From Candidatus Saccharimonadota bacterium (lineage in GTDB: Archaea; Nanobdellota; Nanobdellia; Pacearchaeales; GW2011-AR1), in NCBI GenBank assembly GCA_026002795.1, contig BPGA01000001.1:90001-122000 (forward strand): a stretch of DNA of 32,000 nt, written 5' to 3'. Below the pieces are notes generated by a model, which was given only the letters and a program-made list of their open reading frames with translations, did not search any database and was not told the DNA's origin. Positions 1-20,748 of the stretch are shown here, one piece after another. The position numbers and the translations under genes are program-made. The stretch's first letter is position 1; the number at the start of each line of letters is the position of its first letter.

Positions 1-518
1 GAATCACCGCTTGCTAAATCTAATCTATTTGCAGCTCCTCTAAACAACTGTACATCTGGATTAAAGTAAAGATTAGCTGTTGTATTTATTGAACCAACAA
101 CATCTAATGTTTGTTGTGGTGTTGTTGTTCCAATGCCGACTCTGCCTGTGTTTCCTACAAAAGTTACAAACTCTGAATTAGAATCATTTAAAAAGGCTAA
201 CCTATAATCTCCTGCACCAGAATTCCAGTTAACAATGTTCCTTAATTTTATATCTCTTGTTGCCTGAACAACTCCTCCAGCACTTACGTTGCTGTCATAT
301 TTTCCTCTGAAAATCACATCAGGAGAGTCTGAACTTGAATTATCTGCTACATCGTTTGCAAGTGCTATAGCACTTCTTGAAAATAAGATATCACGCCACC
401 TATAACTAGAATTTCCTAAATCAAAACTATTATCTAAATCAGGAATTAAGCTTCCATTAATTTCTAAGTTATTAACTTGAAGTGCAGAAATATTAACAAA
501 ATAACCTGTTCTGAGCAT
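1..518 (-). CDS. tail-fibre-like repeat surface protein, array member D. It runs off the window and is probably the frame-shifted continuation of 493..1089.
   Basis: My hand translation of the minus strand (codons starting at coordinates divisible by 3) is open from 644 down to 1. It reads MLRTGYFVNISALQVNNLEINGSLIPDLDNSFDLGNSSYRWRDILF...FVGNTGRVGIGTTTPQQTLDVVGSINTTANLYFNPDVQLFRGAANRLDLASGD. It carries the same VGIGTTTP-x3-L-x-V-G module as its neighbours. It is absent from the ORF track because it has no stop inside the window. Confidence 0.6.
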   Translation of the reverse strand, partial: MLRTGYFVNISALQVNNLEINGSLIPDLDNSFDLGNSSYRWRDILFSRSAIALANDVADNSSSDSPDVIFRGKYDSNVSAGGVVQATRDIKLRNIVNWNSGAGDYRLAFLNDSNSEFVTFVGNTGRVGIGTTTPQQTLDVVGSINTTANLYFNPDVQLFRGAANRLDLASGD

Positions 519-1089
519 AAATATCCCCACCAATAATTGAAAGCCCACCATTCTGCCAACCACCATTAAAATCAAAATTGCCATATACAGATGTGTTAAG
601 TGGCATGAAAAAGCTAGAGTCATAACCATCAAGTTTGTCTGCGTTTACATTAGTTAAGCCAGAACCATTTCCTGAAAAAGTTCCATAAATTGTTCCTGTT
701 GCATTAATGTCACCTATAACATTCAACTTATTTGCAGGTGTTGTCGTTCCGATGCCGACGTTGCCTGTGTTTGAATTTACAAACAAAACATTAGAGCCTA
801 CTGTGAGGTTGTTGTTAATAACTGCATTGTTTCTTATTGTTGTTGTTCCTGAAGAAGCTCCAAGTCTTAAGGTTGTTGCAGCTCCACCAATGTCAAGAGT
901 TGTTGCAGTTGTATTTATTAAAGCGAAAGTTGTTGATGGTGTTGTTATATTTGAAATTATTGATGGACTTGTTAATGTTGGTGTGTTATTAAAAACAAGA
1001 GCTCCAGAACCTGTTTCATCTGTTACAGACAGAAGCAACATTAGCAGAAGAAATTGTAGAAACAAGATTTGAAGAAGAATCTGTTGCAA
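493..1089 (-). CDS. tail-fibre-like repeat surface protein, array member C. This is a frameshift fragment; the real coding part probably begins near 1030.
   Basis: ORF track. The first ~20 aa (MQQILLQILFLQFLLL...) are out-of-frame noise overlapping the end of 1016..2710. From SVTDETGSGALVFNNTPTL onward the sequence is family-like and includes GNVGIGTTTPANKLNVIGDINATGTIYG. Confidence 0.6.
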   Translation of the reverse strand: MQQILLQILFLQFLLLMLLLSVTDETGSGALVFNNTPTLTSPSIISNITTPSTTFALINTTATTLDIGGAATTLRLGASSGTTTIRNNAVINNNLTVGSNVLFVNSNTGNVGIGTTTPANKLNVIGDINATGTIYGTFSGNGSGLTNVNADKLDGYDSSFFMPLNTSVYGNFDFNGGWQNGGLSIIGGDIYAQNRLFC

Positions 1090-2710
1090 CCAACCTATTT
1101 GCTGTTAATCCTGAAATTCTTGCGTTTGTTCCATAAATTGTTCCTGTTGCATTAATGTCACCAACAACATTCAACTTATTTGAAGGTGTTGTTGTTCCAA
1201 TACCAACATTACCTGAAGTGTCATTAACAAACAAATCATTAGTAACATTAAGACTTAGTCCTCCTGTTCCGCTACCTTGTATTTCAAGTTTTGCCCCCGG
1301 CGCCGTCGTTCCAATGCCGACGTTGCCAGAGTTATCTAATACCAACACATTGCCCAACCCACTCGACCAGAACAATAAGTCACCTCCTGTTCCTGCTCCA
1401 TGAAGTGTCTCATTAGCAGAAATGATGTCCCAAGCCCTATCACCGCTTCTCTCTATTCTCAGTCTACCGGCATTTCCATTTGAGTCGCCGAAGAGGTGGA
1501 ATTGTACTCCTGGATTCGTCGTCCCGATGCCGACGTTGCCAGTGCTGGTTATTGCCATCATGTCCCCTGGTCCCGGCGTCCATAACCTTGCTACATTCCC
1601 TATGCTATACCAGACATATTTTTGACCCGCTCCTGCACTAACATTTGGAGTAAATCCTCGGTCGTAGAACGATAGAGATGCGCCGGTTCCTGCGGATGAA
1701 ATTTCACCACCCTGATTGATATTTCCAGATATAATAGCTCCAGTGGCATCAGCAACGATAGCACCTACAACGTGAAGTTTAGTTTCAGGATTCGTCGTCC
1801 CGATGCCGACGTTGCCTGGTATTATCATTCCATCGCTTGGCGGCACAGTTCCTGCATATGAACCAACTGAGAGACCTCCTGTTGCTCCTGATACCGCATA
1901 AATACCTAACTTTCTGTTGCCGTTTATCCACACTGCGAGCGGATCGCCTGTATTTGCATTCTCAAAAACTAAATGGGCATTGTCTGTAGTGTCTTGGTCA
2001 TAAAACTGTACATTGGCCGATGATGCACCTCCATCCAACGTTGATTTTCCAAGTAATCTCAATGAAGCTCGTGCTCCATTGTTTTGGATACGTAAACTGT
2101 CAACATTAACCCCCACATTGTCTACAATATGGAGTTTCGCTCCCGGACTCATCGTGCCAATGCCGACGTTGCCGTTCAAACCACCAACATACAGCAGGTC
2201 ATTAATGGCCAGAGGCTTCGACGCGACCCCAACATATCTGCTGTAAATCCACGAACGGTCAGCTGTTGCGTCATACCCGATGCTGATGCCGCGATTGCTC
2301 GCATCGCGGATGTTCGTGATGCCATTATCATTGAGTGCAGCATTGCCACCCTGGACATCCAATTTTGCATTTGGCCCCGTCGTCCCGATGCCGACTCTAT
2401 CTGTATTGCTATTCACAAAAAGAGTATTTGTGTCAACTGTGAAATTCTGTCCAACAACAACATTATTATTAAATGTCTTATCTCCTGCAAAAATCTGCGT
2501 TCCTGTAGAAACAACTCCTGATTGTGTTGAAGAAGCATCTCTTATTGTAACATTACTTGCGCTTGTAATTCTTCCTTGAGCATCAACTGTGAATCTTCCC
2601 ACTACAATATCTCCGCCATAAGTTCCTGCTGTTACTCCTGTGTTTGAAAGAGAGAAGGTTACATTTCCGCTGCCAACAAGTCTATCTGTCAGTGTTCCTG
2701 AAATTGACAT
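1016..2710 (-). CDS. tail-fibre-like repeat surface protein, array member B. It has no signal peptide, and its central part is GC-rich.
   Basis: ORF track, 564 aa. It has six (G/D)xVGIGT(T/M)xPxxKLxVxG modules. The N-terminus reads TGVTAGTYGGDIVVGRFTVDAQGRITSASNVTI, which is typical of tail-fibre-domain proteins as I recall them. The frame is open upstream to 2782. Confidence 0.8.
   Translation of the reverse strand: MSISGTLTDRLVGSGNVTFSLSNTGVTAGTYGGDIVVGRFTVDAQGRITSASNVTIRDASSTQSGVVSTGTQIFAGDKTFNNNVVVGQNFTVDTNTLFVNSNTDRVGIGTTGPNAKLDVQGGNAALNDNGITNIRDASNRGISIGYDATADRSWIYSRYVGVASKPLAINDLLYVGGLNGNVGIGTMSPGAKLHIVDNVGVNVDSLRIQNNGARASLRLLGKSTLDGGASSANVQFYDQDTTDNAHLVFENANTGDPLAVWINGNRKLGIYAVSGATGGLSVGSYAGTVPPSDGMIIPGNVGIGTTNPETKLHVVGAIVADATGAIISGNINQGGEISSAGTGASLSFYDRGFTPNVSAGAGQKYVWYSIGNVARLWTPGPGDMMAITSTGNVGIGTTNPGVQFHLFGDSNGNAGRLRIERSGDRAWDIISANETLHGAGTGGDLLFWSSGLGNVLVLDNSGNVGIGTTAPGAKLEIQGSGTGGLSLNVTNDLFVNDTSGNVGIGTTTPSNKLNVVGDINATGTIYGTNARISGLTANRLVATDSSSNLVSTISSANVASVCNR
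1026..1033. repeat. 4-nt tandem duplication CAGA-CAGA (minus strand TCTG-TCTG) at the frame change between members B and C
   Basis: The minus strand reads gct tct gtc tgt aac aga tga. Deleting one tctg gives gct tct gta aca gat gaa aca ggt, which translates to ASVTDETG. Confidence 0.7.
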
Positions 2711-2775
2711 GCCTGTTCCTTGGACAATAGATCCTTTAACAAAACCAGCGCTTGTGTTAACTTCCTGAAGCTGAC

Positions 2776-4431
2776 TTAAATCTCAAGTGTTCTTGATTGT
2801 GGAACTGCGTTTGTTGCAGTTGAGTTTACTGATTGCAATTGTGAAAGTGTTACAGCATCTTGTGCAGATGTTCCATTTGCAAGATTAATGATTTTGTTGT
2901 TGTCCATGTTTATTGTTCCGTTGAAAACAGCAGAACCATTTACATGGAGTTTTTGTTGTGGTGTTGTTGTAGCAATGCCGACGTTGCCGCTACTGTCTAT
3001 TCTTACTCTTTCTAAACCTCCTGCATAAAGAGCTATGTCATTTGTTGTTGGAGGTCTAAAGAATTTAACCTGGCCTAAAGGAGATCCTGCATAAATAATC
3101 TCATTGCTTGTTGTTTGAAATGGGCCTGAAGCTAAAATATCCCCATTAACTTCAAACTCCTCTCCAGGTGTTGTTGTTCCTATACCAATTCTTGTTCCGT
3201 TTTGATAGATAATTGAGTTGTTTAAAGAGCTAGAAGAGTTCCATAATGGTATATAACCAAATGTTCCTTGGCCTGTTATTGTTCCTCCTGAATTTTGATC
3301 TGCAACACAAACAAGTTGTCCTGTGCTTGTTGTTGTTAAAACCTCTCCTGGATTACAGATTGAAGCCTGGAATATAGAAGCTCCTGTTACATTAAGTGTT
3401 CCTAAAACATTTAATGTTGCTTGTGGGGTGCTTGTGTTTATACCAACATTGCCGCTACTGTCTATTCTTACTCTTTCTAAACCTCCTGCATAAAGAGCTA
3501 TGTCATTTGTTGTTGGAGGTCTAAAGAATTTAACCTGGCCTAAAGGAGATCCTGCATAAATAATCTCATTGCTTGTTGTTTGAAATGGGCCTGTTGATTG
3601 TATTGTTCCAACAACATCCAAAGCTTCAGAAGGTGTTACAGTACCAATACCTACTTTTCCTGTATCATTATTAACAAACAAGACACCACCAGCACTTAAA
3701 TTTCCACTAACTGTTAAATTTTTTCCTATATCTAAGTTATTGCTTATATCTGCATCTATTGCAAAAATTTTTGTGATTTTTGATGCTAGACTTCCAAGAA
3801 AACTAAAAAAGCCGTAATTTGCGCTTACATTAAAGTTTCCAAGCGAAAGATTGGTATCTATTGCAACATCACTTAAATTAACTTGTGTAGCTCTAAAAGC
3901 ATAAGGAACTCTTCCAAGCTGAGTAATATTTCTCAAAACACCATCTCTATAATAACAAAGATAATACTGCTTATCAAAACTTAAAGCGCTTAAATTACCT
4001 CCTCCAGAACCAATTTGTGGAAGATACAAAGAAACAATACCTCTTAAATCTGTAGTTAAAGTTACAGAATGATTATAAACAACAGGCTGCTCACAAGAAG
4101 TTAGATTTGGGTTTTCTGTAATGTTAAAAGCAAAATTAAAAGTTCCTGTTTGGATTGTTCCATTAGGAAAAGTTGTTTGTAAATTTATGTGAAATGTATC
4201 GTTTATTGGTTCAGAATAAACAAAATTAAAGAAAAATATTGAAATTAAAAATGAAAAAAAAGCAAGAATTGTTTTTTTTGTATTGTTCTTTTTTATTTTT
4301 TGTAATTGTTTTTTATTTTTTTTTATTGGTATTTCTTTTATTTTTTCATATTTATTGTACCTTTCAAATTTAATATTATCCTCGCTAAGTGAAAGATACC
4401 ATACGCTACCTGACATATGAAAAAAACACAA
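2776..4431 (-). CDS. exported or anchored tail-fibre-like repeat protein, array member A, rich in N-x-S/T sequons
   Basis: ORF track, 551 aa. A Lys-rich N-terminus is followed by the hydrophobic stretch TILAFFSFLISIFFFNFVYS. There are four VGIGT-type modules and more than 20 N-x-S/T sequons. The C-terminus reads NNKIINLANGTSAQDAVTLSQLQ. The track start at 4431 is a TTG; the first ATG is at 4416. Confidence 0.8.
   Translation of the reverse strand: MCFFHMSGSVWYLSLSEDNIKFERYNKYEKIKEIPIKKNKKQLQKIKKNNTKKTILAFFSFLISIFFFNFVYSEPINDTFHINLQTTFPNGTIQTGTFNFAFNITENPNLTSCEQPVVYNHSVTLTTDLRGIVSLYLPQIGSGGGNLSALSFDKQYYLCYYRDGVLRNITQLGRVPYAFRATQVNLSDVAIDTNLSLGNFNVSANYGFFSFLGSLASKITKIFAIDADISNNLDIGKNLTVSGNLSAGGVLFVNNDTGKVGIGTVTPSEALDVVGTIQSTGPFQTTSNEIIYAGSPLGQVKFFRPPTTNDIALYAGGLERVRIDSSGNVGINTSTPQATLNVLGTLNVTGASIFQASICNPGEVLTTTSTGQLVCVADQNSGGTITGQGTFGYIPLWNSSSSLNNSIIYQNGTRIGIGTTTPGEEFEVNGDILASGPFQTTSNEIIYAGSPLGQVKFFRPPTTNDIALYAGGLERVRIDSSGNVGIATTTPQQKLHVNGSAVFNGTINMDNNKIINLANGTSAQDAVTLSQLQSVNSTATNAVPQSRTLEI
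2984..3128. repeat. copy 1 of a perfect 145-bp direct repeat inside member A
   Basis: A letter-by-letter comparison with 3449..3593 shows the two copies are identical. Confidence 0.9.
3449..3593. repeat. copy 2 of a perfect 145-bp direct repeat inside member A
   Basis: Identical to 2984..3128. The offset is 465 bp (in frame, 155 codons). It encodes PFQTTSNEIIYAGSPLGQVKFFRPPTTNDIALYAGGLERVRIDSSGNVGI. Confidence 0.9.
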
Positions 4432-4502
4432 ATTTTAAACATAAAATTTAGAGGATAAAAAGGGCCTAAAACTTGTTTTTTTAGTACCAATTGAAAATTA
4501 TT

Positions 4503-4513
4503 TTTTACCCTAC
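4503..4513 (-). promoter_or_regulatory. GTAGGGTAAAA motif (reverse orientation) followed on the minus strand by an A/T box. It is a candidate promoter or operator facing array member A.
   Basis: The plus strand reads ttttaccctac. The minus strand reads gtagggtaaaaaataatttt, about 90 nt upstream of the ATG at 4416. Confidence 0.35.
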
Positions 4514-4577
4514 GTTTTTTATGTAAGGTAAAAACTAAAATTTTAATTTTCCGTCGATAAAAATTGAAAAAAAATGT

Positions 4578-4596
4578 GTAGGGTAAAATTTATAAA
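4578..4596 (+). promoter_or_regulatory. GTAGGGTAAAA motif abutting the TTTATAAA box of the RHH gene promoter
   Basis: gtagggtaaaa lies at 4578-4588 and tttataaa at 4589-4596, 40 nt before the ATG at 4636. An imperfect third copy, gtaaggtaaaa, lies at 4523-4533. Confidence 0.4.
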
Positions 4597-4635
4597 CATC
4601 AAAATTCTTAATTTTTAAGTTTTAAAGGGGGTGAA

Positions 4636-4827
4636 ATGAAGCAACCTGTAAAAATTTATTTAGATTTAGAAACTAAAAAAAAGCTTTTAAAGAAGGCTAA
4701 TGAAACAGGTTTTAGTGGTAGAGGTGCTTTAACAAAATTTATAGAAAAGATTGCTTCTGATGATATATGCTTCCTTGATAATAACCTAAGAAAAATGCTA
4801 AAGGTTTTATTCCCAAACACAAAATAA
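4636..4827 (+). CDS. ribbon-helix-helix (CopG/Arc/MetJ-like) DNA-binding protein
   Basis: ORF track, 63 aa. The sequence VKIYLDLETKKKLLKKANETGFSGRGALTKFIEKIA fits a beta strand-helix-helix pattern. The start is preceded by GGGGGTGA (4627-4634), the only well-spaced Shine-Dalgarno-like site I saw in the window. Confidence 0.6.
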   Translation: MKQPVKIYLDLETKKKLLKKANETGFSGRGALTKFIEKIASDDICFLDNNLRKMLKVLFPNTK

Positions 4828-4863
4828 TTCTTAATTAAAAATTCAAAGATTAAAGTAAATTTT

Positions 4864-4908
4864 AAAAAGATAAACTCTTTAAAAATTAAAAAGATAAACT
4901 CTTTAAAA
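4864..4908. repeat. two copies of the 21-nt sequence aaaaagataaactctttaaaa, 24-nt period, immediately upstream of tRNA-Ile
   Basis: Copy 1 is 4864-4884 and copy 2 is 4888-4908. Each contains a TTTAAAA box. Confidence 0.7.
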
Positions 4909-4920
4909 GAAAAAATAAAA

Positions 4921-5051
4921 GAGCCCGTAGCTCAGCCTGGTTAGAGCACTGCTCTTATATGAGAGTGTTTCGTTTTAGGAACACACCTTTAGAGTTAAGA
5001 GGTGAACTCTAAGATAGGCAGGGGTCCTCGGTTCAAATCCGAGCGGGCTCA
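4921..5051 (+). tRNA. tRNA-Ile, anticodon UAU, with a 56-nt intron at the canonical 37/38 position (4960..5015)
   Basis: Hand fold. Acceptor GAGCCCG/CGGGCTC plus discriminator A. D arm GCTC-AGCCTGGTTA-GAGC. Anticodon stem CTGCT/GGCAG. Loop C-T-TAT-A|intron|A. T arm CTCGG-TTCAAAT-CCGAG. The bulge-helix-bulge is CTTA (4954-57) paired with TAAG (5010-13), flanked by 3-nt bulges TA|T and AT|A, then GAG/CTC. Confidence 0.75.
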
Positions 5052-5161
5052 TCTTTTATTAACAAATTTTAAAAACTATTTTTCAGTATATTTTAAAGTT
5101 TACAAAAAGTATACAAGTATACTCTTGTAATTTAGGTTTGTAAAAAATAGATTTGTAAAAA

Positions 5162-5234
5162 GCCCCGATAGTTCAGAGGCCAAGAATGCGGCCCTTTCAC
5201 GGCCGTGACCCGGGTTCGAATCCCGGTCGGGGCG
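5162..5234 (+). tRNA. tRNA-Glu, anticodon UUC
   Basis: Acceptor GCCCCGA/TCGGGGC plus G. Anticodon arm CGGCC-CTTTCAC-GGCCG. T arm CCGGG-TTCGAAT-CCCGG. Confidence 0.9.
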
Positions 5235-5242
5235 CTTTTTAA

Positions 5243-5859: not shown

Positions 5860-7602
5860 CTAAAAACCTTTGAAAGCCTTTGTTTCTATTTCTATATTTA
5901 AATTTTTTATAAACTCTTCTAGTTTTAAACTTTTTATTTTTTTGTCTCCTTTGATTCTAACAGCTATCATATTTTCCTTTTCCTCTTTATCTCCAATAAC
6001 AACAATATAAGGAATTCTCATTAGTTCTGCATCCTTAACTTTTATATCTAATGGAACTGACCTAAAATCAGAGTCTATCCTTAGATTTGGCATCTCTTTT
6101 AGGATTTTGTCTATAATTTTTTGTGAGTGGTTTATGTTTCTGTCTGTAAAGCTTAAAACCCTTACTTGAATTGGTGCTAGCCAGGTAGGAAGCCTTCCTT
6201 TTGTATGCTCTAAAAGAATACCTAAAAACCTTTCTATAGTGCCAAAAATTGCCCTATGTATAACTAAAGGTGTTTTTTCTTTGCCGTTTTTGTCAGTATA
6301 CTTTAATTCAAATCTTTTTGGCATCTGCATATCTAGCTGAATTGTTGTAAGCTGCCAGCTTCTACCTAAAGAATCTTTAATGTGAATATCGATTTTTGGG
6401 CCGTAAAAAGCTCCTTCTCCTTTTTTAATGCTATATTTTACTTTTGATTTTTTTAAAGCAGACTCAAGTGCTTTTTCTGCAAAATCCCACTCTTCTTTTT
6501 TTCCTAAAAGGTTTTCTGGCCTTGTTGAAAGTTCAACAGAGTATGGAAATTTAAAAACATCTTCATAAACAATTTTAAACATTTCAAAGATATTCATAAT
6601 CTCAGATTCAAGCTGCTCTTCTGTACAAAAAATATGGGCGTCATCCATTGTAAGCTTTACAACCCTAAAAAGACCGCTTAAAACACCTGAAAGCTCTTTT
6701 CTATGAACAATTCCAAGCTCTGCAAATCTTAAAGGCAGCTCTTTATAGCTTCTTGGTCTTATTTTATAGATTAGCATTGCAGGAGGGCAGTTCATTGGCT
6801 TTATAGCAGCTTCCTTGCCTTCATGTGTTGTTATAAACATGTTTTCTTTATAATAATCCCAATGGCCTGAAACTTTCCAGAGTTTATTGTTGTAAATGAA
6901 GGGTGTTGATATTTCTTTGTAAGAAAACTTTTTCCAAAGGCTTCTCATAAATGAAATAAGCTCATTGTAGATTATAAGACCATTTGGATGTAAAAAAGGA
7001 GCTCCTGGAGAAACATCATTAAAGCTAAACAAATCCATTTCTTGGCCTAAAATTCTATGATCATAACTTTTTAGCTTGCTTTTATCTAGTGTGCTTTTTG
7101 TTATGCTTCTTAAGATTGTTTTAGGATCTTGATCTTTTTCTTTTTTAAGAGATAGCTCTTCTTTAAGCTTTTTTTGATTATCTTTTTCAGCTGAAATCTC
7201 TCTACTTAACTCTGAAAGCGGATGGCCTTTAACTTTAAGTTCAAATTCTTTATAATAACCAAATGGAGCTGAAAAAACACTAAACTCTTTTTTTAGCTCT
7301 TTTTCTGCATTTTTTAGAATTTCAACTGCTTTATCAGGTTCAGAAAGATTGCTTGAAAGATGAGCATAAGGATAAAGAACAATATTTTTTACCTTAACTT
7401 GGGAAGCAATATCTTTAATGTTTTTTATAAGCTCAGAAACAAATTCGGTTTTGTCTTCTTTTTCAACAGCTGTAAGAACAAGTAAAGCTTCTTTAATTGT
7501 TTTTTCCTTTTTTTCATCAGAAGAAAGATCTTTTACAGATTTAAGGGCTTTTTTTATGGGTTTAAACTTTATATAATCAACATGTAAAGTGATTATTTTC
7601 AT
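5860..7602 (-). CDS. thrS: threonyl-tRNA synthetase, archaeal type, with N-terminal DTD-like editing domain
   Basis: The N-terminus MKIITLHVDYIKFKPIKKALK...LLVLTAVEKEDK matches the archaeal editing domain. The class II core has HRILGQEMDLFSF, NCPPAMLIY, DDAHIF, VIHRAIFGTIERF and a C-terminal anticodon-binding domain. Confidence 0.93.
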   Translation of the reverse strand: MKIITLHVDYIKFKPIKKALKSVKDLSSDEKKEKTIKEALLVLTAVEKEDKTEFVSELIKNIKDIASQVKVKNIVLYPYAHLSSNLSEPDKAVEILKNAEKELKKEFSVFSAPFGYYKEFELKVKGHPLSELSREISAEKDNQKKLKEELSLKKEKDQDPKTILRSITKSTLDKSKLKSYDHRILGQEMDLFSFNDVSPGAPFLHPNGLIIYNELISFMRSLWKKFSYKEISTPFIYNNKLWKVSGHWDYYKENMFITTHEGKEAAIKPMNCPPAMLIYKIRPRSYKELPLRFAELGIVHRKELSGVLSGLFRVVKLTMDDAHIFCTEEQLESEIMNIFEMFKIVYEDVFKFPYSVELSTRPENLLGKKEEWDFAEKALESALKKSKVKYSIKKGEGAFYGPKIDIHIKDSLGRSWQLTTIQLDMQMPKRFELKYTDKNGKEKTPLVIHRAIFGTIERFLGILLEHTKGRLPTWLAPIQVRVLSFTDRNINHSQKIIDKILKEMPNLRIDSDFRSVPLDIKVKDAELMRIPYIVVIGDKEEKENMIAVRIKGDKKIKSLKLEEFIKNLNIEIETKAFKGF

Positions 7603-9548: not shown

Positions 9549-11618
9549 ATGAAAGTTTCAATGAAAAGAGGTTTTAAGAATTTTTTAAATTTTTTAGTTA
9601 TATTTGTTGGTTTTTTATTACTGATTCCAGTTGTGTCTTCAGAGATAATTTTTAATCAACAACCAGAAACAGTTCATAATTTAGGTGATAAGCTTCCTAT
9701 ATCAATAACTATAAAATCTCTACAAGAAAAATCTGGTTTTTTAGAGATAAGATTGATTTGTGATGGACAAGAATCAGCTTTCTACAAAAACCCTTTTTCA
9801 ATTTCGCCTGGTGAAGAAAAAAAAGTTGAAACTACTCTAATTCTTGAAAAAAGATTTATAGGAGAGTTAACTGGAAATTGTTTAATAAAGGCTTCTTTAA
9901 ATGACGAATACAAACTTTCAAACCCTTTTTATATTTCTTCTTTAATCTTTTTAGAGCCAAGTTTTCAATCTAATGAATTTAATCCTGGACAAAACATTTC
10001 TATTTCTGGAAAAGCAACAAAAGAGAACAAAGCTAATGTAAATGGATTTATTGAAGTTTCATTAAATGATGCAAACAAAACAATAATAAAAAAAGAATCA
10101 ACAATAAATAACGGAATTTTTAAATTTGATTTTATTCTGCCGAAAAATATAAAATCTGGCTTTTATAGCTTAAGTTTTTATGCATATGAAAAAGACATAA
10201 ACAATGAGATAACCAACACTGGAAGAGTAGATAAAAACATAAAAATTCTTCAAATACCAACAAATCTTGAACTTGTTTTTGAAACAAAAGAAGTCGAACC
10301 TGGAAAAAGTTTAAGAGTAAAACCAGTACTTCATGACCAGGCTGGGGATCCTATTGCATCGAGTGTTTTTTTAACAATAAAAAATTCAAAAAATAAAATT
10401 GTTGAACAGGTTGAGGTTCCTACAGATTCTTTTTTTGAGTTTCCAATAAAATATAATGAAGCTCCTTCTGAATGGAGTATTTTCGCTTTGTCAAACAAAA
10501 TTTCTTCTGAATCTAAATTTAAAATTTTAGAAAAAGAGAGTGTTGATGTAAAAATAATAAATCAAACAATTTTGATAACAAACACAGGAAACGTAGCTTA
10601 CAACAAAACAGTTCTTGTAAAAATAGCTAACGAATCTTTAGATATTGATGTTTTTCTTGATGTTGGTGAGACAAAAAAATATATTGTTACGGCGCCTGAA
10701 GGAAAATATAGGGTAGAAGTTTTAACAGGAAATGTTGTTTCTTCTAATGAAGTTTTGCTTACAGGAAAAATTTTTGAGGTTAAAGAAGCTCCTGCAAAAA
10801 TACTAAGCCTTGTTAGTCATCCTTGGGTGTGGGTTTTTGTAATTGTTATTCTTGGGTTTGTTGTTTTAATTTTATATAGAAGAGGTTACAAAAAAGCCTT
10901 TATTGGAACAGCTCCTGCTTCTACCCTAGAAATTCCGAAAAAAAGAATTGAGAAAACAAAAGTAGTTAGTGCAAATGAAATTTTAAATATTCCAATGCCA
11001 CAAACAACTTTAATTGATTACAAAACAAAGGCAGAACATGTTGTATCAATAAAAGGTGAAAAACATCTGGTTTCTCTTGTAACTTTATACATAAAAAACT
11101 TTAATGAAATTAAAAATGAAAAAGAGGGTGTAAAAGAGAGTATTAATAAAATAATTAAAATTGCGGAAAGTGAAAAAGCAATTATTTATGAAACAGGAAA
11201 TTCTATAATTTTTATCTTATCTCCTATAAAAACTAAAACTTTTAAAAATGAAGAAAGAGCACTTAAACTTGCTGAAGAGATAAACAACTCTTTATCCTAC
11301 CATAATAAAATCTTTAAAACTAAATTAGATTATGGAATTTCTATAAGTAAAGGTTATATTGCAGCTAAAGTTGAAGCTGGAATTTTCAAATTTGCTGATT
11401 TTGGATCTTTGATTTTAAATTCAAAAAGATTAGCATCGTCAGCAAAGAACAGCATTTTGCTTTCAGAAGAAATGGCTTTATCATTAAAAGATTTTGTAAA
11501 AACCTCTCAAGTTCAAACAGCTTCTGGAGTCAAAGCATATTCAATAAAAGAAAAAAAAGATTATGATAAGCACTCTTCTTTTATAAGAAGTTTCTTATCT
11601 AGAAATAAAGAGAAATAA
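9549..11618 (+). CDS. single-pass receptor-like membrane protein with an extracellular beta-rich domain, one TM helix and a cytoplasmic degenerate class III cyclase-homology domain
   Basis: ORF track, 689 aa. Signal peptide FLVIFVGFLLLIPVVSS. TM helix HPWVWVFVIVILGFVVLILY followed by RRGYKK. The C-terminal ~160 aa follow the cyclase pattern: LVSLVTLYIKNF, ETGNSIIFILSP, YGISISKGYIAAKV, FADFGSLILNSKRLASSAKNSILLSEE. Confidence 0.75.
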   Translation: MKVSMKRGFKNFLNFLVIFVGFLLLIPVVSSEIIFNQQPETVHNLGDKLPISITIKSLQEKSGFLEIRLICDGQESAFYKNPFSISPGEEKKVETTLILEKRFIGELTGNCLIKASLNDEYKLSNPFYISSLIFLEPSFQSNEFNPGQNISISGKATKENKANVNGFIEVSLNDANKTIIKKESTINNGIFKFDFILPKNIKSGFYSLSFYAYEKDINNEITNTGRVDKNIKILQIPTNLELVFETKEVEPGKSLRVKPVLHDQAGDPIASSVFLTIKNSKNKIVEQVEVPTDSFFEFPIKYNEAPSEWSIFALSNKISSESKFKILEKESVDVKIINQTILITNTGNVAYNKTVLVKIANESLDIDVFLDVGETKKYIVTAPEGKYRVEVLTGNVVSSNEVLLTGKIFEVKEAPAKILSLVSHPWVWVFVIVILGFVVLILYRRGYKKAFIGTAPASTLEIPKKRIEKTKVVSANEILNIPMPQTTLIDYKTKAEHVVSIKGEKHLVSLVTLYIKNFNEIKNEKEGVKESINKIIKIAESEKAIIYETGNSIIFILSPIKTKTFKNEERALKLAEEINNSLSYHNKIFKTKLDYGISISKGYIAAKVEAGIFKFADFGSLILNSKRLASSAKNSILLSEEMALSLKDFVKTSQVQTASGVKAYSIKEKKDYDKHSSFIRSFLSRNKEK

Positions 11619-13788: not shown

Positions 13789-16305
13789 ATGAAAGAAGAA
13801 GGGGTTATTTTTATTAAATGGTTTTCTGAACTTGATAAGAATTCTGGTGGTGTTGCTGGAGGAAAAGGGGCTAATCTTGCAGAAATTTATAATTTAGGGA
13901 TTAATGTTCCACCTGGGTTTGTTGTAACAGCGCAGGCTTATAATTATTTTATAAAAAATTCTGGAATTGATGAGAAAATCAGGCAACTTCTTTCTAAAAT
14001 AGATTATGAAAATACAAGAGAGCTTACAGAAGTTACAGAAAAAGTTCGAGAATTGATAACTAAAGCAGACTTTCCTAAAAATATGGAAGAAGAGATAATT
14101 GAGGCTTATGAAACTCTTTCTTTAGAAGAAGGAAAATTTAAAGGAAAAACAGCAGAGGTTATTGTTGGAAAAGCAGAACCAATTTTTGTAGCTGTAAGAA
14201 GTTCTGCAACAACAGAAGATCTTGCTGAAGCTAGTTTTGCAGGACAGCAAGAGACTTTTTTGAATGTTAGAGGGAATGAAGAATTGCTTGATAAAATTAA
14301 GGAATGTTTTGCTTCTTTATTTACTGCAAGAGCGACCTATTACAGACATAAAAAAGGATTTAAACATGAACAAGCAAGCCTTGCTGTTGTTATTCAAAAA
14401 ATGATTAATTCTGAAAAGTCTGGTGTTATTTTTTCTAAAGATCCTTCAACTGGAGAAAAAAATGTAATAATAGAGGCTGTATTTGGTTTAGGAGAGGGAA
14501 TAGTTTCTGGAAAAATAACTCCTGACAGGTATATTGTTTCTGGCGAGAGCTTTAATAATTTTGAGATAAAAAAAGAAATAATATCTAAAAAAAAGATAGC
14601 TATAGTTAGAGGTGAAAATGGAAAAGATTTGATTGTTAAGCTTAAAGAAAAAGATTCCGAAAAAAGGGTTTTGAATGATAAAGAGATTAAAGAGCTTGCA
14701 TTTATAGCCTTAAAACTTGAAAAGCATTATCAAAAACCACAAGATATTGAATTTGCTATTGAATCAGGAGAAATTTATGTTGTACAGACAAGACCTATAA
14801 CAACTCTTGAAAAAAAATATGAAAAAACACAAACAGAAATAAAGGGAGAAGCTATTCTTACAGGAATAGCTGCTTCTCCTGGTATTGGTGTTGGAAAAGT
14901 AAAAATTGTTAGGAGTTTAGAAGATTTAAAGAAAATTAACAAAGGTGATGTTCTTGTAACAACAATGACAAATCCTGATATGGTTGTAACAATGCAAAAG
15001 TGTTCTGCTATAGTTACAGATGAAGGTGGTTTAACAGCTCATGCTGCAATTGTTTCAAGAGAGATGGGAATTCCGGCTGTCGTTGGTACTGAAGAAGCAA
15101 CTTCAAAACTTAAAGAAAATGAAGTTGTAACTGTTGATGGATTTACTGGAAAAATTTACAAAGGAAAAATTGCAGAAGCAAAAGAAAAGGAAATTAAAGA
15201 AGTAAAGTCCAAAACAAAAACAAAAATTAAAGTTATAATTGATTTGCCTAGTTTCTCAAAAAGAGCAGCAAAAACAGGAATTAAAAGTGTTGGACTTGCA
15301 AGATTAGAGGGGGTAATTGCAGAGTCAGGAAAACATCCGCTTTATTTTCTTGAAAAAGGAAAAATAAAAGAGTATGAAGAACTAATTTACAAAGGCTTAA
15401 AAGAGCTTTGTGAGCCTTTTGATGAAATCTGGATAAGAACATCTGACATAAGAACTGACGAGTTTATTAATCTTGAAGGAGCTCCAAAAGAAAAAGAAGC
15501 TAATCCCATGCTTGGAATGCACGGAATTAGATTTTCATTAAGAAATCCTGAAATTCTTAAAGCAGAACTTTTAGCAATGAAAAAAATTTCAGACTCTGGT
15601 AAAAAAATCGGTATTATGGCACCACAAATAATCTCTGTAGAGGAGATTAATCAGCTTAAAAAGTTTGTTAAAGAAATTAATTTAAATGCAAAAGTCGGAG
15701 TTATGATAGAAACTCCTGCTTCTGTTCAAATTATAGAAGAACTTTGTAAAACAGGAATAGATTTTGCGTCTTTTGGAACAAATGATTTAACTCAGTACAC
15801 TCTTGCTGTTGATAGAGGAAATAAAGAGGTACAAGATCTTTACAATGAAATGCATCCTGCTATTTTAAAACAACTTTCTTATGTTATAAAGGTTTGTAGA
15901 ATGTATGGTGTTGAATCAAGTATTTGCGGACAAGCTGGAAGTAGAAAAGAAATGGTTAAGTTTTTAGTTGAAAATGGAATAAATAGCATAAGTGTAAATG
16001 CAGATGTTGCAGCTGAAATAGCAGAGTACATTGAAAGTCTAGAAAAGCAAATAAATGAAAAGTACGAAAAAGAAAACCAAAAAGAATCTGATAAAGAAAT
16101 TTTAAAAAAAGAAACAATAATTAATTTAAATCAGAATTTATCAAGCGAGAGAATCAAAGAAGAAATTAAAAAAGAGTTAGAAGAGTTTCCCATAGTAAGA
16201 GGAGCAGAATGGCCTTTAGAGGAAAGCTATTTAGATGATTTTAAGAGCGATATTGTAAGCGATATTGAAAAGGAAAAAGATAATGATGTTTCTTACATTT
16301 TTTAA
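13789..16305 (+). CDS. ppsA: phosphoenolpyruvate synthase (pyruvate, water dikinase)
   Basis: Motifs seen: GGKGANLAE, PPGFVVT, VAVRSSATTEDL, TDEGGLTAHAAIVSREMGIPAVVG (phospho-His loop), GTNDLTQYTLAVDR. There is also a K/E/D-rich C-terminal extension of about 80 aa. Confidence 0.93.
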   Translation: MKEEGVIFIKWFSELDKNSGGVAGGKGANLAEIYNLGINVPPGFVVTAQAYNYFIKNSGIDEKIRQLLSKIDYENTRELTEVTEKVRELITKADFPKNMEEEIIEAYETLSLEEGKFKGKTAEVIVGKAEPIFVAVRSSATTEDLAEASFAGQQETFLNVRGNEELLDKIKECFASLFTARATYYRHKKGFKHEQASLAVVIQKMINSEKSGVIFSKDPSTGEKNVIIEAVFGLGEGIVSGKITPDRYIVSGESFNNFEIKKEIISKKKIAIVRGENGKDLIVKLKEKDSEKRVLNDKEIKELAFIALKLEKHYQKPQDIEFAIESGEIYVVQTRPITTLEKKYEKTQTEIKGEAILTGIAASPGIGVGKVKIVRSLEDLKKINKGDVLVTTMTNPDMVVTMQKCSAIVTDEGGLTAHAAIVSREMGIPAVVGTEEATSKLKENEVVTVDGFTGKIYKGKIAEAKEKEIKEVKSKTKTKIKVIIDLPSFSKRAAKTGIKSVGLARLEGVIAESGKHPLYFLEKGKIKEYEELIYKGLKELCEPFDEIWIRTSDIRTDEFINLEGAPKEKEANPMLGMHGIRFSLRNPEILKAELLAMKKISDSGKKIGIMAPQIISVEEINQLKKFVKEINLNAKVGVMIETPASVQIIEELCKTGIDFASFGTNDLTQYTLAVDRGNKEVQDLYNEMHPAILKQLSYVIKVCRMYGVESSICGQAGSRKEMVKFLVENGINSISVNADVAAEIAEYIESLEKQINEKYEKENQKESDKEILKKETIINLNQNLSSERIKEEIKKELEEFPIVRGAEWPLEESYLDDFKSDIVSDIEKEKDNDVSYIF

Positions 16306-16350: not shown

Positions 16351-16974
16351 ATGAAAGGAAAAAAAGAGGCTTTATTAAATCAGGATAATTCTGAAAAGAA
16401 TAAAGAAAAACCTATTGAGCGGGTTTCAAAAACAAAAAAAGAAAAAAAAGGAAAAGTTACAAAAGTTAGGTATGAATCAGTAAAGGAAATTAAAGTAGAC
16501 AGAGCTTTGGTTGAAAATTTTGTTGACCTGCAAAAAGTTTTAGTAGCTCTTTCTTCTAAACTTGACAAACTTTCAGAAAGGCTCTCAAACTTCTTATCCC
16601 TTTTAGAAGAATCAGCTAAAAATTTTGCTAAAAAAGAATTTGAATCTGCTTCAGAAAAAGAAGAAATGAAGAAAATTTTAGAGAAGCTTGACAAGCTTTC
16701 AGAACAAGCAGGGCTTATTGGTAAGGGCCTTGCTTTAATTCATGAAGCAAATCTAGAAAAAACTTCAAAAGAAAGTTATACTCAAACAACAACACCTTAT
16801 AAACCATCTTTAGTTATTGAAGAAAAAAGCAGGCAAATAGCTCCTACAAACATAAACAAATTTCAAGAGCAAAAACTAAATATGCAAAATCTAGAAATAA
16901 ATAAAAAATTAGAAAAGGAAAAACAAGAAGAAAACAAATCAACTGAAAAAGATAATTTTAGGGTATTTAGTTAA
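16351..16974 (+). CDS. hypothetical K/E-rich coiled-coil protein
   Basis: ORF track, 207 aa. It contains an internal repeat of KLDKLSE (SSKLDKLSERLS and LEKLDKLSEQAG). Confidence 0.6.
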   Translation: MKGKKEALLNQDNSEKNKEKPIERVSKTKKEKKGKVTKVRYESVKEIKVDRALVENFVDLQKVLVALSSKLDKLSERLSNFLSLLEESAKNFAKKEFESASEKEEMKKILEKLDKLSEQAGLIGKGLALIHEANLEKTSKESYTQTTTPYKPSLVIEEKSRQIAPTNINKFQEQKLNMQNLEINKKLEKEKQEENKSTEKDNFRVFS

Positions 16975-19227: not shown

Positions 19228-20235
19228 TTATAATCCACAATTTCCAGCTTCCCAGATTGAAAAATTCTCACCAGGGTTTATATTTGGAGGAGGAGGAGTA
19301 TATTCAAGATCATCTAATAGTACTCTTAAGTAACTTATATTCTTAGTAGGAACATAATCTGCAAAATTAATTTGAAAGCAGCGGCCTTCTGCAGAGTTGC
19401 TGAAATTGACATACTTTCCAACGTATGCTGAAATAGCCACATCTGATTTTGGAAGATCTTGGCTATCAAAGTAGATATCATTCCAAACAGAGAAAATAAC
19501 TCCTGTATCAAGTGGAGGGTCTAAAATGCAACCTCCAGAACCATCTGGACCAAATCCTTGCTTACATACACACGTTTGTGTACAGTGTGCTGGTAAAGGT
19601 GTTCCATCACATTCATTTCCATCATTAATGTCTGTTTCATTCCAAACACCATCACAAGAAGCTGGCGCTGATCCTCCTCCAGTACCACTGCCTCCTGTAC
19701 CTCCATTGCCTCCTGTTCCTCCTGTACCTCCATTGCCACCAGTACCTCCTGTTCCTCCAGTGCCTCCTGTGCCTCCTGTTCCTCCAAGAGAGGAGCTTGA
19801 AATCATAACTCTGTCTGTAACATCTCCAATTGTTTCTTTAGAGTTCACTTCAAAAATAGGAGCAACTGAAACATGTGTTATGTTTGATATTCCTCCAACT
19901 TCTTCATCTGTAAATAAAAATGTTGTAGATTGTAATTGAGGAATATTAGTGTTCTTTGTTTGTGTTTTTACTGTAGTAGAGCTGTTCTCAAAAATAAAAT
20001 AAATACCTAAAAGATTTCCAGAACCAACACCCCTTCTAACTTCAACAACAACATTATTGCCTTCAATATATGCTTTTTTAATGCTTAAGTCAATAGCAAA
20101 CCTCTCGAGAGTTATGCTTTCAGATCCGCTAGAAAGAATATTTCTAATAACAACCCAAACTATAGAAATTGCAATTATTGAGATAAGCATAATAAGTAAA
20201 GTAGTAACAACAGGAGAAAGTCCTCTTTTTTTCAT
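19228..20235 (-). CDS. archaeal type IV pilin-like protein (class III signal peptide) with a Gly-Gly-Thr repeat linker and a Cys-rich C-terminal domain
   Basis: The N-terminus MKKRG|LSPVVTTLLIMLISIIAISIVWVVIRN fits the archaeal prepilin signal (K/R-G then S-P-V and a hydrophobic helix). A (GGT/GGN)n run follows. The C-terminus contains CDGVWNETDINDGNECDGTPLPAHCTQTCVCKQGFGPDGSGGC. Confidence 0.8.
   Translation of the reverse strand: MKKRGLSPVVTTLLIMLISIIAISIVWVVIRNILSSGSESITLERFAIDLSIKKAYIEGNNVVVEVRRGVGSGNLLGIYFIFENSSTTVKTQTKNTNIPQLQSTTFLFTDEEVGGISNITHVSVAPIFEVNSKETIGDVTDRVMISSSSLGGTGGTGGTGGTGGTGGNGGTGGTGGNGGTGGSGTGGGSAPASCDGVWNETDINDGNECDGTPLPAHCTQTCVCKQGFGPDGSGGCILDPPLDTGVIFSVWNDIYFDSQDLPKSDVAISAYVGKYVNFSNSAEGRCFQINFADYVPTKNISYLRVLLDDLEYTPPPPNINPGENFSIWEAGNCGL
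19672..19785 (-). repeat. tandem 9-nt (Gly-Gly-Thr/Asn/Ser) coding repeat, about a dozen units, with a 27-nt higher-order unit
   Basis: The plus strand reads (cct cct gta / cct cca ttg / cct cct gtt)n. The segment cctcctgtacctccattgcc occurs twice, at 19691 and 19718. Confidence 0.85.
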
Positions 20236-20295: not shown

Positions 20296-20748
20296 TTAAA
20301 AACTTCTACTTTGTGTTGTCTGGCAAAGTTGCTCATTTCCAGAAGCATCAATAAAGTAAGGTGTAAACTCTATTCTTGATGCGTTCAACAAAGATGTCTG
20401 TAGTTTTGCAGATTTTGTTTCAAGCTGATTTATTTTACTTCCGAAATCAAGCACTCCTGTGCTAGTAGTTCCATTAAACAAAACCACTTTTACTCCACCA
20501 ATATCTCCTCCACCAGCACCTCTACGTAAAGTTACTGTATAGTTACCAGTTTCACCAGCAACAGGATTAACACTTACAAACTCTAACTGAATTGCAGCGC
20601 ATTGTGTTGTTATATCAATTTGCTCTGAACCTTGCTCAACAAGATTTCTAATAACCACCCAAATTATTCCAATTGCAATTATTGTAAGCAAAATTATAAG
20701 CAAAGTAGTGACAACAGCTGACAAACCTCTTTTGTTTTTTTGGTACAT
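20296..20748 (-). CDS. archaeal type IV pilin-like protein (class III signal peptide), short paralogue
   Basis: The N-terminus MYQKNKRG|LSAVVTTLLIILLTIIAIGIIWVVIRN is nearly identical to that of 19228..20235. Both share the segment V.L/V.RG.G.G. Confidence 0.8.
   Translation of the reverse strand: MYQKNKRGLSAVVTTLLIILLTIIAIGIIWVVIRNLVEQGSEQIDITTQCAAIQLEFVSVNPVAGETGNYTVTLRRGAGGGDIGGVKVVLFNGTTSTGVLDFGSKINQLETKSAKLQTSLLNASRIEFTPYFIDASGNEQLCQTTQSRSF

Follow-up and report, generated by a model that had tools for sequence, protein, structure and literature searches.

A frame-broken, modular fibre gene related to mosaic adhesive trimers and phage tail fibres in a Pacearchaeota genome: a likely host-contact adhesin

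The locus and its source

The sequence analysed here is a stretch of 32,000 nt (hereafter the window; contig BPGA01000001.1, positions 90,001–122,000), and this report concerns a group of four tail-fibre-like open reading frames (ORFs) on its minus strand, at its left end. The window was found to originate from KatS3mg001, a metagenome-assembled genome (MAG) of Candidatus Pacearchaeota (GTDB Nanoarchaeota) of ~0.54 Mb from Katase hot-spring sediment, which agrees with the original prediction, made from the sequence alone, of a small-genome archaeon. This genome was assembled with metaFlye from PacBio HiFi reads with an N50 of 10.5 kb and a quality over Q20, and an episymbiotic lifestyle has been put forward for it (PMC9671151). 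The HiFi read set of the source sample is DRA011957 / DRR290133. ORF2 is identical to GIU68255.1 (KatS3mg001_105), encoded on a 535-kb contig, while ORF1, ORF3 and ORF4 correspond to KatS3mg001_106, _104 and _103, respectively. The window DNA ends at position 1; to the left of it, only the proteins _103, _097, _096 and _094 were used for reconstruction.

Open reading frames and motif array

On the minus strand, frames are open at 4434–2779 (frame 1), 2782–1019 (frame 0), 1104–496 (frame 1) and 644–3 (frame 2), the last of these running off the window. As 50–110 stops occur across the region in the two remaining minus-strand frames, the four long open frames are far from what chance would produce, and the predicted arrangement of four minus-strand ORFs in three frames was recovered. 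An in-frame ATG is present close to the start of each of the four, which are listed in the public record as four separate coding sequences (CDS).

ORF1 (2776..4416, minus strand) encodes 546 aa from an ATG at 4416 and ends at an early TAA stop (2776–2778) located just past the first of three junctions. Its end had been placed correctly in the original prediction, but its start had been set at 4431; the conserved start is ATG 4416, because the orthologue P0134 opens with the same residues, MSGSVWY, with TTG 4431 as an alternative. ORF2 (1016..2710, minus strand; 564 aa from ATG 2710) lies in a frame open from 2782 on and ORF3 (493..1041, minus strand; 182 aa from ATG 1041) in a frame open from 1104, with no signal peptide in either. 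ORF4 (P0126; 1..518, minus strand) encodes 428 aa from ATG 518, of which 172 codons are inside the window. The motif GxVGIGTTxP had been counted 12 times, distributed 4+6+1+1 over the four ORFs, and this holds once DRVGIGTTGP and TRIGIGTTTP are counted; the other motifs quoted at that time, VTAGTYGG..FTVDAQGRITSAS, TDETGSGALVF, DLGNSSYRWRDIL and NNKIINLANGTSAQDAVTLSQLQ, were all found in the translations.

A start region, N-terminal anchor and head domain were found in ORF1 only. Residues 45–63 (4228..4284, minus strand) form a hydrophobic helix in the AlphaFold model, a predicted membrane anchor or signal preceded by a Lys-rich N-terminal extension, which bears out the earlier observation that such a segment is present in ORF1 alone. 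The helix is followed by a predicted immunoglobulin-like (Ig-like) beta-sandwich at about residues 70–170 (3907..4209, minus strand; residues 75–167 in the model), modelled with a predicted local distance difference test (pLDDT) score of 80–95; the model is that of a monomer and covers the N-terminal 245 residues. This N-terminal region shares 36–69% identity with 31 DPANN-type homologues (alignment A3). A fold search with the domain gave no significant match in the PDB, the best E value being 8.5e-3, to generic Ig-like domains. Within the stretch encoding the Lys-rich extension there are three overlapping A/T-rich repeats of 35 nt, 17–20 nt apart (4267–4338), whose long A runs make it the most error- or slippage-prone stretch of ORF1.

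An upstream non-coding region is likewise a feature of ORF1 only, with ORF2–4, _094, _096 and _097 beginning inside modules. Promoter elements were judged by eye on upstream 25-mers, since the organism is an archaeon, and ORF1 was found to be preceded by TTTAAAA at about −22. Many genes of the window have TAAA or TTTAAA ~25 nt 5' of the ATG without a Shine-Dalgarno sequence (for example 5860–7602, 9549–11618, 13789–16305, 16351–16974 and 19228–20235), the pattern expected of leaderless archaeal transcripts.

Junctions between the reading frames

Junction 1 (2779..2780, minus strand) joins the native tail of a segment termed X, ...CTTGAGAT, out of register to the mobile-element-like sequence TTAAGTCAGCTTCAG.... 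Compared with the fibre gene P0002 on contig L001 (BPJI01000003.1, 38,547 bp), the window has 68 extra nt at 2780–2847 (DNA alignment A1, blastn), which cause a −1 frame shift and supply the stop of ORF1. Two nucleotides of microhomology are present at the joint, the foreign side of which begins TTAAGTCAG. P0002 is unbroken across the same site (...DAVTLSQLQEVNTSAGFV...), its protein reading ...NMDNNKIINLAN..DAVTLSQLQEVNTSAGFVKGSIVQGTGMSISG... in one frame, and KatS3mg001_096 contains the same join as junction 1 but in register. Junction 1 is an illegitimate, out-of-register recombination joint and not a frameshift.

The two remaining junctions are simpler. DNA alignment with L007, a contig of a 40%-GC bacterium resembling the candidate phyla radiation (CPR) (Joint Genome Institute (JGI) 3300050342, contig Ga0527077_0101), identifies junction 2 (1026..1033, minus strand) as one extra nucleotide (+1) in TCTGTCTG. 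Once repaired, the protein reads ...ISSANVA(S)SVTDETGSGALVF...; P0198 reads ...LTANRLVATDGSSNLTTTISSANLAASVTDETGTG... across the site, and the module SSANL..(V/I)(T/S)DETGSG was found in 20 further proteins. Junction 3 (509..510, minus strand) is one extra A (+1), CAGAACAGG against CAG-ACAGG, in a DNA alignment with two DPANN loci, L005 (Nanoarchaeota contig JBBTAK010000024.1) and L006. When this is repaired the sequence becomes ...GGDIYAQTGYFVNIS..., and the corresponding ...GGDIYAQTG(Y/W)F.NI... is in one frame in P0012, P0018, P0007, P0127, P0131, P0134, P0130 and P0133; in all, 29 read-through sites of the GDIYAQTGYF/WF type were counted among the fetched homologues. The original prediction had spoken of three frame changes; at junctions 2 and 3 single bases are in excess, but junction 1 is not a simple frame change.

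Intact homologues are collinear through all three junctions, and ORF2–4 are consecutive parts of one protein. Rather than four genes, the ORFs represent parts of a single fibre-gene lineage. Separate expression of four genes, or production of one protein by programmed ribosomal frameshifting, would accord with the ATG near each ORF start and the annotation of each as a CDS, and a +1 shift would suffice at two of the junctions. However, ORF2–4 start mid-module without a signal peptide, whereas neighbouring surface-protein genes in another, related Pacearchaeota contig each have their own; none of the junction sequences is a slippery site, and the frame continues through the corresponding positions in all relatives examined, namely L005, L006, L007 and more than 20 proteins; and junction 1 would require bypass of a stop after a 68-nt offset. 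Both forms of this explanation are considered highly improbable, and programmed frameshifting was rejected, there being no slippery site conserved in the homologues and the offset of 68 nt with a stop at junction 1.

A comparable break was seen elsewhere. At 4500–4600 of L007, an unrelated bacterial contig, a fibre gene whose neighbours encode FtsW/RodA and NAD-ligase is split by a one-base change (...GNIGIQAALG, then TLDNYALSLRT... in the next frame), and the ORF that follows the change begins within a module. Staggered frames may thus recur among fibre genes, whether they arise in the organisms themselves or from faulty assembly.

The second of these possibilities bears on the window itself. 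If the population had several alleles of a hypervariable gene and metaFlye had merged them into a mosaic consensus, the indels would be spurious and the true gene would be intact. The family is repetitive, and breaks within it seem to be found in assemblies from many environments, as for a repetitive or hypervariable gene; L007 is frame-staggered too, and _094, _096 and _097 also end in frameshifts, which could reflect a systematic consensus problem at repeats. Against this, the HiFi reads are of high quality and long enough to span the entire structure, and long homopolymers are not found at any of the lesions. The structural difference at junction 1 amounts to 68 nt with only 2 nt of microhomology, and an error in the assembly graph could not have produced it. 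Window 3564–4948 is recovered without change in a k-mer assembly of the same run, which breaks at exact repeats only. The other window genes inspected are housekeeping genes, all intact, and the frameshifts are confined to this fibre family. An artefact of this kind is thus judged to be quite unlikely. Since HiFi reads span the region between and including the two copies of X, long homopolymers are absent and other genes are intact, the lesions are probably real.

Among other sequences of the family, many short proteins matching the ORF1 N-terminal domain (P0243–P0268) are on contigs of 0.7–5 kb and several are labelled "partial" at NCBI.

Segment X and the block it flanks

Segment X was found in two copies. 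The first (2782..3018, minus strand) encodes 79 aa, GLERVRIDSSGNVGIATTTPQQKLHV...NNKIINLANGTSAQDAVTLSQLQSVNSTATNAVPQSRTLE, and includes a neck motif of the YadA_stalk or T7-tail-fibre-like type. Residues 467–545 of ORF1 are identical over these 79 aa to residues 231–309 of P0126 (GLERVRID...NAVPQSRTLE), and because P0126 carries them the 68 nt at junction 1 can be recognized as the native tail of X. The second copy, in ORF4, starts ~173 nt left of the window and is followed by the natural C-terminus, MIGTANQISV...GDMIFRI and a stop codon, an ending common to other family members (P0130 and P0141 among them).

As X recurs inside ORF4, it flanks a mosaic block of ~2.95 kb on both sides (window 2779 to ~172 nt left of the window) and forms a direct repeat of 237 nt. 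Passing from ORF1 through X directly into the ORF4 tail gives a protein of 664 aa, to which P0150 aligns over its whole length, and an exact match to this reconstructed or "restored" protein was not present in a collection of 15 billion proteins. The repetition of the ORF1 end in ORF4, together with the natural C-terminus there, suggests an ancestral unit of ~664 aa or two tandem paralogues. The ancestral unit may thus have been one or the other of these instead of a single protein of >1,600 aa. Two histories would give the present arrangement: a fragment may have been inserted with one homologous and one illegitimate end, or an illegitimate deletion may have fused two tandem paralogues having the same C-terminal region.

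It had been proposed that the locus is a single exported fibre of more than 1,600 aa interrupted by frame changes. This is largely borne out by the collinear homologues, the lack of signal peptides in ORF2–4 and the matches to tail-fibre families, YadA_stalk and MAT fibres described below. It needs to be modified in that junction 1 is a recombination scar and the ancestral protein may have been shorter.

Mosaic composition and exchange partners

The core of ORF2 (1283..2482, minus strand) is compositionally foreign, its G+C content at third codon positions (GC3) being 0.30–0.60 with z up to 7.8. The other window genes have a GC3 of 0.166 ± 0.055, none exceeding 0.32, and ORF1 is within this background. 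The core module shares 45–72% identity (BLASTP local) with modules of the unrelated metagenome proteins P0003, P0004 and P0008. A patch of 425 nt (2355..2779, minus strand) has 95.8% DNA identity to P0002, the fibre gene of L001; it encodes LSQLQEVNTSAGFV...VTAGTYGG..FTVDAQGRITSAS...DRVGIGTT, its end being the linker motif. Before the linker, ORF2 differs from the L001 gene by one synonymous and five non-synonymous codons, which are too few for a ratio of non-synonymous to synonymous polymorphism (pN/pS).

In L001, which was binned with a Parcubacteria MAG, a unit of 19,261 bp was assembled in about two successive copies. A double-length concatemer of this sort indicates that L001 is a small circular element. 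It has a GC content of 29% and encodes a serine recombinase and a helix-turn-helix (HTH) protein along with numerous small membrane proteins and three secreted proteins of large size, with no capsid or terminase recognized in it. TAAA/TTTAAA boxes are found ~25 nt 5' of its first genes. On the basis of its GC content, these boxes and several stretches identical to _094, _097 and ORF2, the element is probably a plasmid or virus of the Pacearchaeota archaeon and not of Parcubacteria.

At least three additional fibre fragments were found to the left of the window. The first 50 residues of KatS3mg001_094 (P0009, 840 aa) are identical to P0002, and a stretch of 57 aa is identical to the foreign core of ORF2, after which there is a frameshift over the same DNA. 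Two more copies of the module NNKIINLAN...FTVD.QGRITSAS...FVNSNT are present in _097 (183 aa) and _096 (170 aa), the former having the allele of the circular element and the latter that of ORF2, and both end in a frameshift at the linker. This module of ~165 aa is represented by three variant copies within about 12 genes. It was also observed that _094 joins fibre modules with weak CBM_4_9 and ILEI-like domains; these are candidate ligand-binding parts of a second frame-broken fibre gene.

ORF1 itself contains a perfect direct repeat of 145 nt. Copy 1 (3449..3593, minus strand) is located within a 252-nt repeat that is otherwise 83% identical, and copy 2 (2984..3128, minus strand) ends 4 nt into the GNVGI linker motif and overlaps the start of X. 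The perfect tract has the look of a recent gene conversion, and it is inside this repeat that L004, an independent k-mer contig from Logan, comes to an end.

All of the patch boundaries that were located (both ends of the L001-like patch, the end of the 145-nt tract and the ends of the stretches identical to _094) are at the linker motif. The linker codons GGCAACGTCGGCAT were found at 6/7 canonical window sites versus 0/46 low-GC viral sites (Fisher p = 3e-7), and the first four of them are predicted at ~1e-4 per site from the genome's own codon usage. They occur in the 28%-GC archaeon, in the ~30%-GC mobile element and in the 40%-GC CPR-like bacterium. This points to import from a donor pool of ~45–55% GC, homogenization among copies, or both. 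In the window, GNVGIGTT sites on the minus strand are at 146, 765, 1327, 1540, 1816, 2173, 2403 and 2988, and the same GC-rich linker codons (GGC AAC GTC GGC ATY GG. ACG) are also at 10757–12440 of L001 and 4456–5682 of L007. Linker DNA as a universal recombination signal was considered and rejected: over 246 sites in 120 viral loci the codons track genomic GC, and a codon choice that follows GC in viruses implies that no universal signal is present in the DNA. The one peculiarity is that a low-GC locus has the GC-rich form of the linker here.

A possible active role of the fragments

The fragments outside the window and the conversion-like tracts bring up a different explanation, in which the locus is a working variation system. 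ORF1 would be its single expression site, ORF2–4, _097, _096 and _094 would be an archive of modules, and RadA-dependent conversion or deletion between the linker and X repeats would alter host specificity in a manner comparable to pilE/pilS, vlsE and vlhA. Several observations are in keeping with this, namely the variant copies of the ~165-aa module, with one allele in ORF2 and _096 and that of L001 in _097; the long open frames kept in all fragments of a very small and AT-rich genome; and the perfectly identical tracts and homogenized linker DNA. Because the direct repeat X flanks the block, a single deletion would restore an intact 664-aa gene. Conservation and synteny are seen in the N-terminal region, with relatives diverging in the distal part, and homologues of the N-terminal domain in other metagenomes are mostly cut at contig ends, as for a hypervariable gene. 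On the other hand, ORF2–4 are sequential pieces split by single-base insertions and not parallel variants of an ORF1 region, the presumed expression site is itself truncated by the out-of-register join, ORF4 has a full natural C-terminus and stop, and the large protein collection did not hold the exact restored protein. We consider a variation system to be unlikely on this evidence. An expressed gene followed by silent cassettes had been the second proposal of the original prediction; the anatomy of the window, in which ORF2–4 are consecutive, does not support it, although it gains some weight from the broken fragments _094, _096 and _097 outside the window, the preserved open frames and the identity tracts.

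In its widest form, _094 to _106 (at least 10 kb of 0.54 Mb) would function as a store of modules for a fibre with which the archaeon recognizes its host, a suggestion that we regard as doubtful. Shuffling at the homogenized GNVGIGTT linkers and the 237-nt X repeats, with import and export by way of the 19-kb circular element of the same archaeon, is an equally tentative part of it. It is no less speculative that the frame breaks keep donors silent and that the present truncation belongs to a switch that can be reversed.

Chromosomal setting

The 5' half of ORF1 is in a conserved setting. Its order relative to the upstream region, a 63-aa ORF of the ribbon-helix-helix (RHH) type, two tRNAs, the threonyl-tRNA synthetase (ThrRS), a class-I tRNA synthetase (Trp/Tyr type) and phosphoenolpyruvate (PEP) synthase is common to L005, and DNA similarity to that contig spans window 3788–5234. 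This synteny with a related genome indicates that ORF1 is a native chromosomal gene. In L005 the head domain is directly followed by the module that spans junction 3 here, and the contig ends inside the gene. A scan of genome contigs for the locus returned solely an unrelated Methanosarcinales locus. Origin as a prophage or integrated virus was rejected, no other phage genes being present in the window and the housekeeping order being common to the relative.

The right border of the locus is formed by two tRNA genes (4921..5235, plus strand), an intron-containing tRNA at 4921–5051 and a tRNA-Glu at 5162–5235, which are syntenic in the related genome. The former, of 131 nt, scores 53.6 bits against the Rfam tRNA model and was missed by ARAGORN. 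Further into the window, a 150-aa ORF (20296–20748, minus strand) has a weak match to an archaeal type IV pilin N-terminus (E 8e-4), and the adjoining 335-aa ORF (19228–20235, minus strand) has no Pfam match and a high second-position GC of 0.47. Together these two may be a second surface-structure locus.

Proposed history of the locus

Taken as a whole, the locus is interpreted as a recombination-prone, modular fibre gene resembling the mosaic adhesive trimer (MAT) proteins, currently broken, a reading to which we would give a probability of roughly 0.6. It is likely to be a host-contact adhesin of a Pacearchaeota episymbiont. The ancestral state would have been one chromosomal gene, or two tandem paralogues, for a membrane-anchored, tail-fibre-like trimeric surface fibre. 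The layout is modular, a conserved anchor and beta-sandwich head at a syntenic site being followed by beta-helical modules split by the linker ...ERxRI..GNVGIGTTxP..L.V.G. Modules would have been exchanged by recombination at the linker-coding DNA, the partners presumably including further copies within this genome as well as the fibre gene on the 19.3-kb circular element of the same community. In the sequenced genome the frame is broken three times, by the 68-nt illegitimate join and by two single-nucleotide insertions. The present product would be a C-terminally truncated protein of 546 aa made from the promoter-proximal ORF only, with ORF2–4 as recently inactivated coding sequence.

Of this scheme, the ORFs and their lesions, the collinearity with intact homologues, the mosaic composition, the near-identity to the mobile element, the synteny and the family resemblance were observed directly, and we infer the adhesin function, the trimeric structure, recombination at the linker as the mechanism and the non-functionality of ORF2–4. 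A number of points weigh against the proposal. Homology is the only basis for the putative adhesin function and the trimeric fold, and no recognized domain was found by Pfam scan in the C-terminal tip of P0126. If the population is heterogeneous, the lesions could belong to minor haplotypes or be errors of the consensus. ORF2–4 have no internal stops despite the AT-rich background, which fits very recent inactivation but equally fits selection for open frames. Moreover, at least five and probably more broken fibre fragments (_094, _096, _097 and _103–_105) in a genome of 0.54 Mb are not predicted by simple decay.

Host recognition and attachment in DPANN archaea are poorly understood, and the locus provides a concrete candidate, a MAT- or tail-fibre-like fibre at a conserved site with distal modules that vary between relatives. 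Its recent exchange of sequence with a small circular element suggests that an episymbiont may receive host-range modules through mobile elements. If the locus is merely decaying, the finding would be an ordinary one, that of a recently inactivated mosaic adhesin gene.

Comparison with known systems

The association with tail fibres that had been suspected from the motifs was upheld by profile searches on the frame-corrected protein. ORF1 and the frame-corrected ORF2–4 match the PHROG tail-fibre families 9942 and 18345 with E values of 5e-15 to 3e-21. The Pfam family YadA_stalk, a neck motif of 31 residues, is above cut-off (31.8 and 34.9 bits) and is found in ORF1, ORF4 and P0002; a weak Phage_T7_tail match falls at the same place, the neck motif NNKIINLA..DAVT..QL. 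The only significant sequence matches in a search of all of the PDB (E <= 0.03) are to Bdellovibrio structures, 8OND (Bd2133; E 8e-9 and 1.4e-5), 8OL4 and 8OJN, with the alignments falling on the ...ERxRI..GNVGIGT..P..L.V.G unit. This clear kinship to MAT and tail-fibre adhesins weakens the earlier claim that the locus might be something undescribed.

MAT proteins are long chimeric trimeric fibres used by a predator on its prey (PMC10769870). Those of Bdellovibrio bacteriovorus include Bd2133, Bd2439, Bd3182 and Bd1334 and are of S74 and non-S74 (NS74) classes (Caulton et al. 2024, PMC10769870). The repeated beta-helix unit ...ERMRI..GNVGIGT..P..KL.V.G is present in both systems, and both appear to be long surface fibres of a cell that needs to recognize another cell, here as judged from homology and the proposed episymbiotic lifestyle. 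Chimeric evolution with exchanged tips is another common feature, and a division into S74 and NS74 classes may be one as well: the Peptidase_S74 match of P0002 is exactly at cut-off (22.0 bits), and the chromosomal P0126 has no Pfam domain beyond YadA_stalk, so that its C-terminus would be NS74-like. In contrast to the MAT system, the host here is archaeal, and the Lys-rich extension, membrane helix and Ig-like sandwich are not in the solved MAT fragments. The present locus also differs in being frame-broken and in having one module 96% identical in DNA to a small circular element.

Phage tail fibres and tailspikes are built of exchangeable modules, as illustrated by the T7 N-terminal and neck motifs and by the mosaicism of T-even distal fibres. 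The PHROG matches, with E values down to 3e-21, the neck motif and modules bounded by conserved swap motifs are shared with these. The difference is that the gene is at a chromosomal site between housekeeping genes and has a membrane anchor in place of a virion attachment domain; IMG/VR scans with P0002 and ORF1 gave no close relatives. The likeness to the YadA family consists of the YadA_stalk match above cut-off, a 31-residue neck motif that is also common to phage fibres. A trimeric autotransporter adhesin was rejected, as no YadA_anchor, head or left-handed beta-roll was detected by Pfam in ORF1, the fused ORF2–4, P0126 or P0002, and the archaeon differs in lacking an outer membrane.

Variation by way of pseudogenes or silent cassettes is known from Neisseria pilE/pilS, Borrelia vlsE and Mycoplasma synoviae vlhA. 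The present locus resembles such arrays in having a promoter-proximal gene with an export signal, followed on the same strand by open, apparently promoter-less and signal-less pieces, and in its conversion-like identity tracts. It differs in that the window contains successive portions of one protein instead of parallel variants, and the expressed gene is itself truncated. No description of such fibres in DPANN was found in the literature searched. The protein family and its mosaic evolution are already known from phages and Bdellovibrio, and what is new here is the setting in an archaeal episymbiont, the array of fragments, a conserved anchor with its head domain, and the recent exchange with a small circular element.

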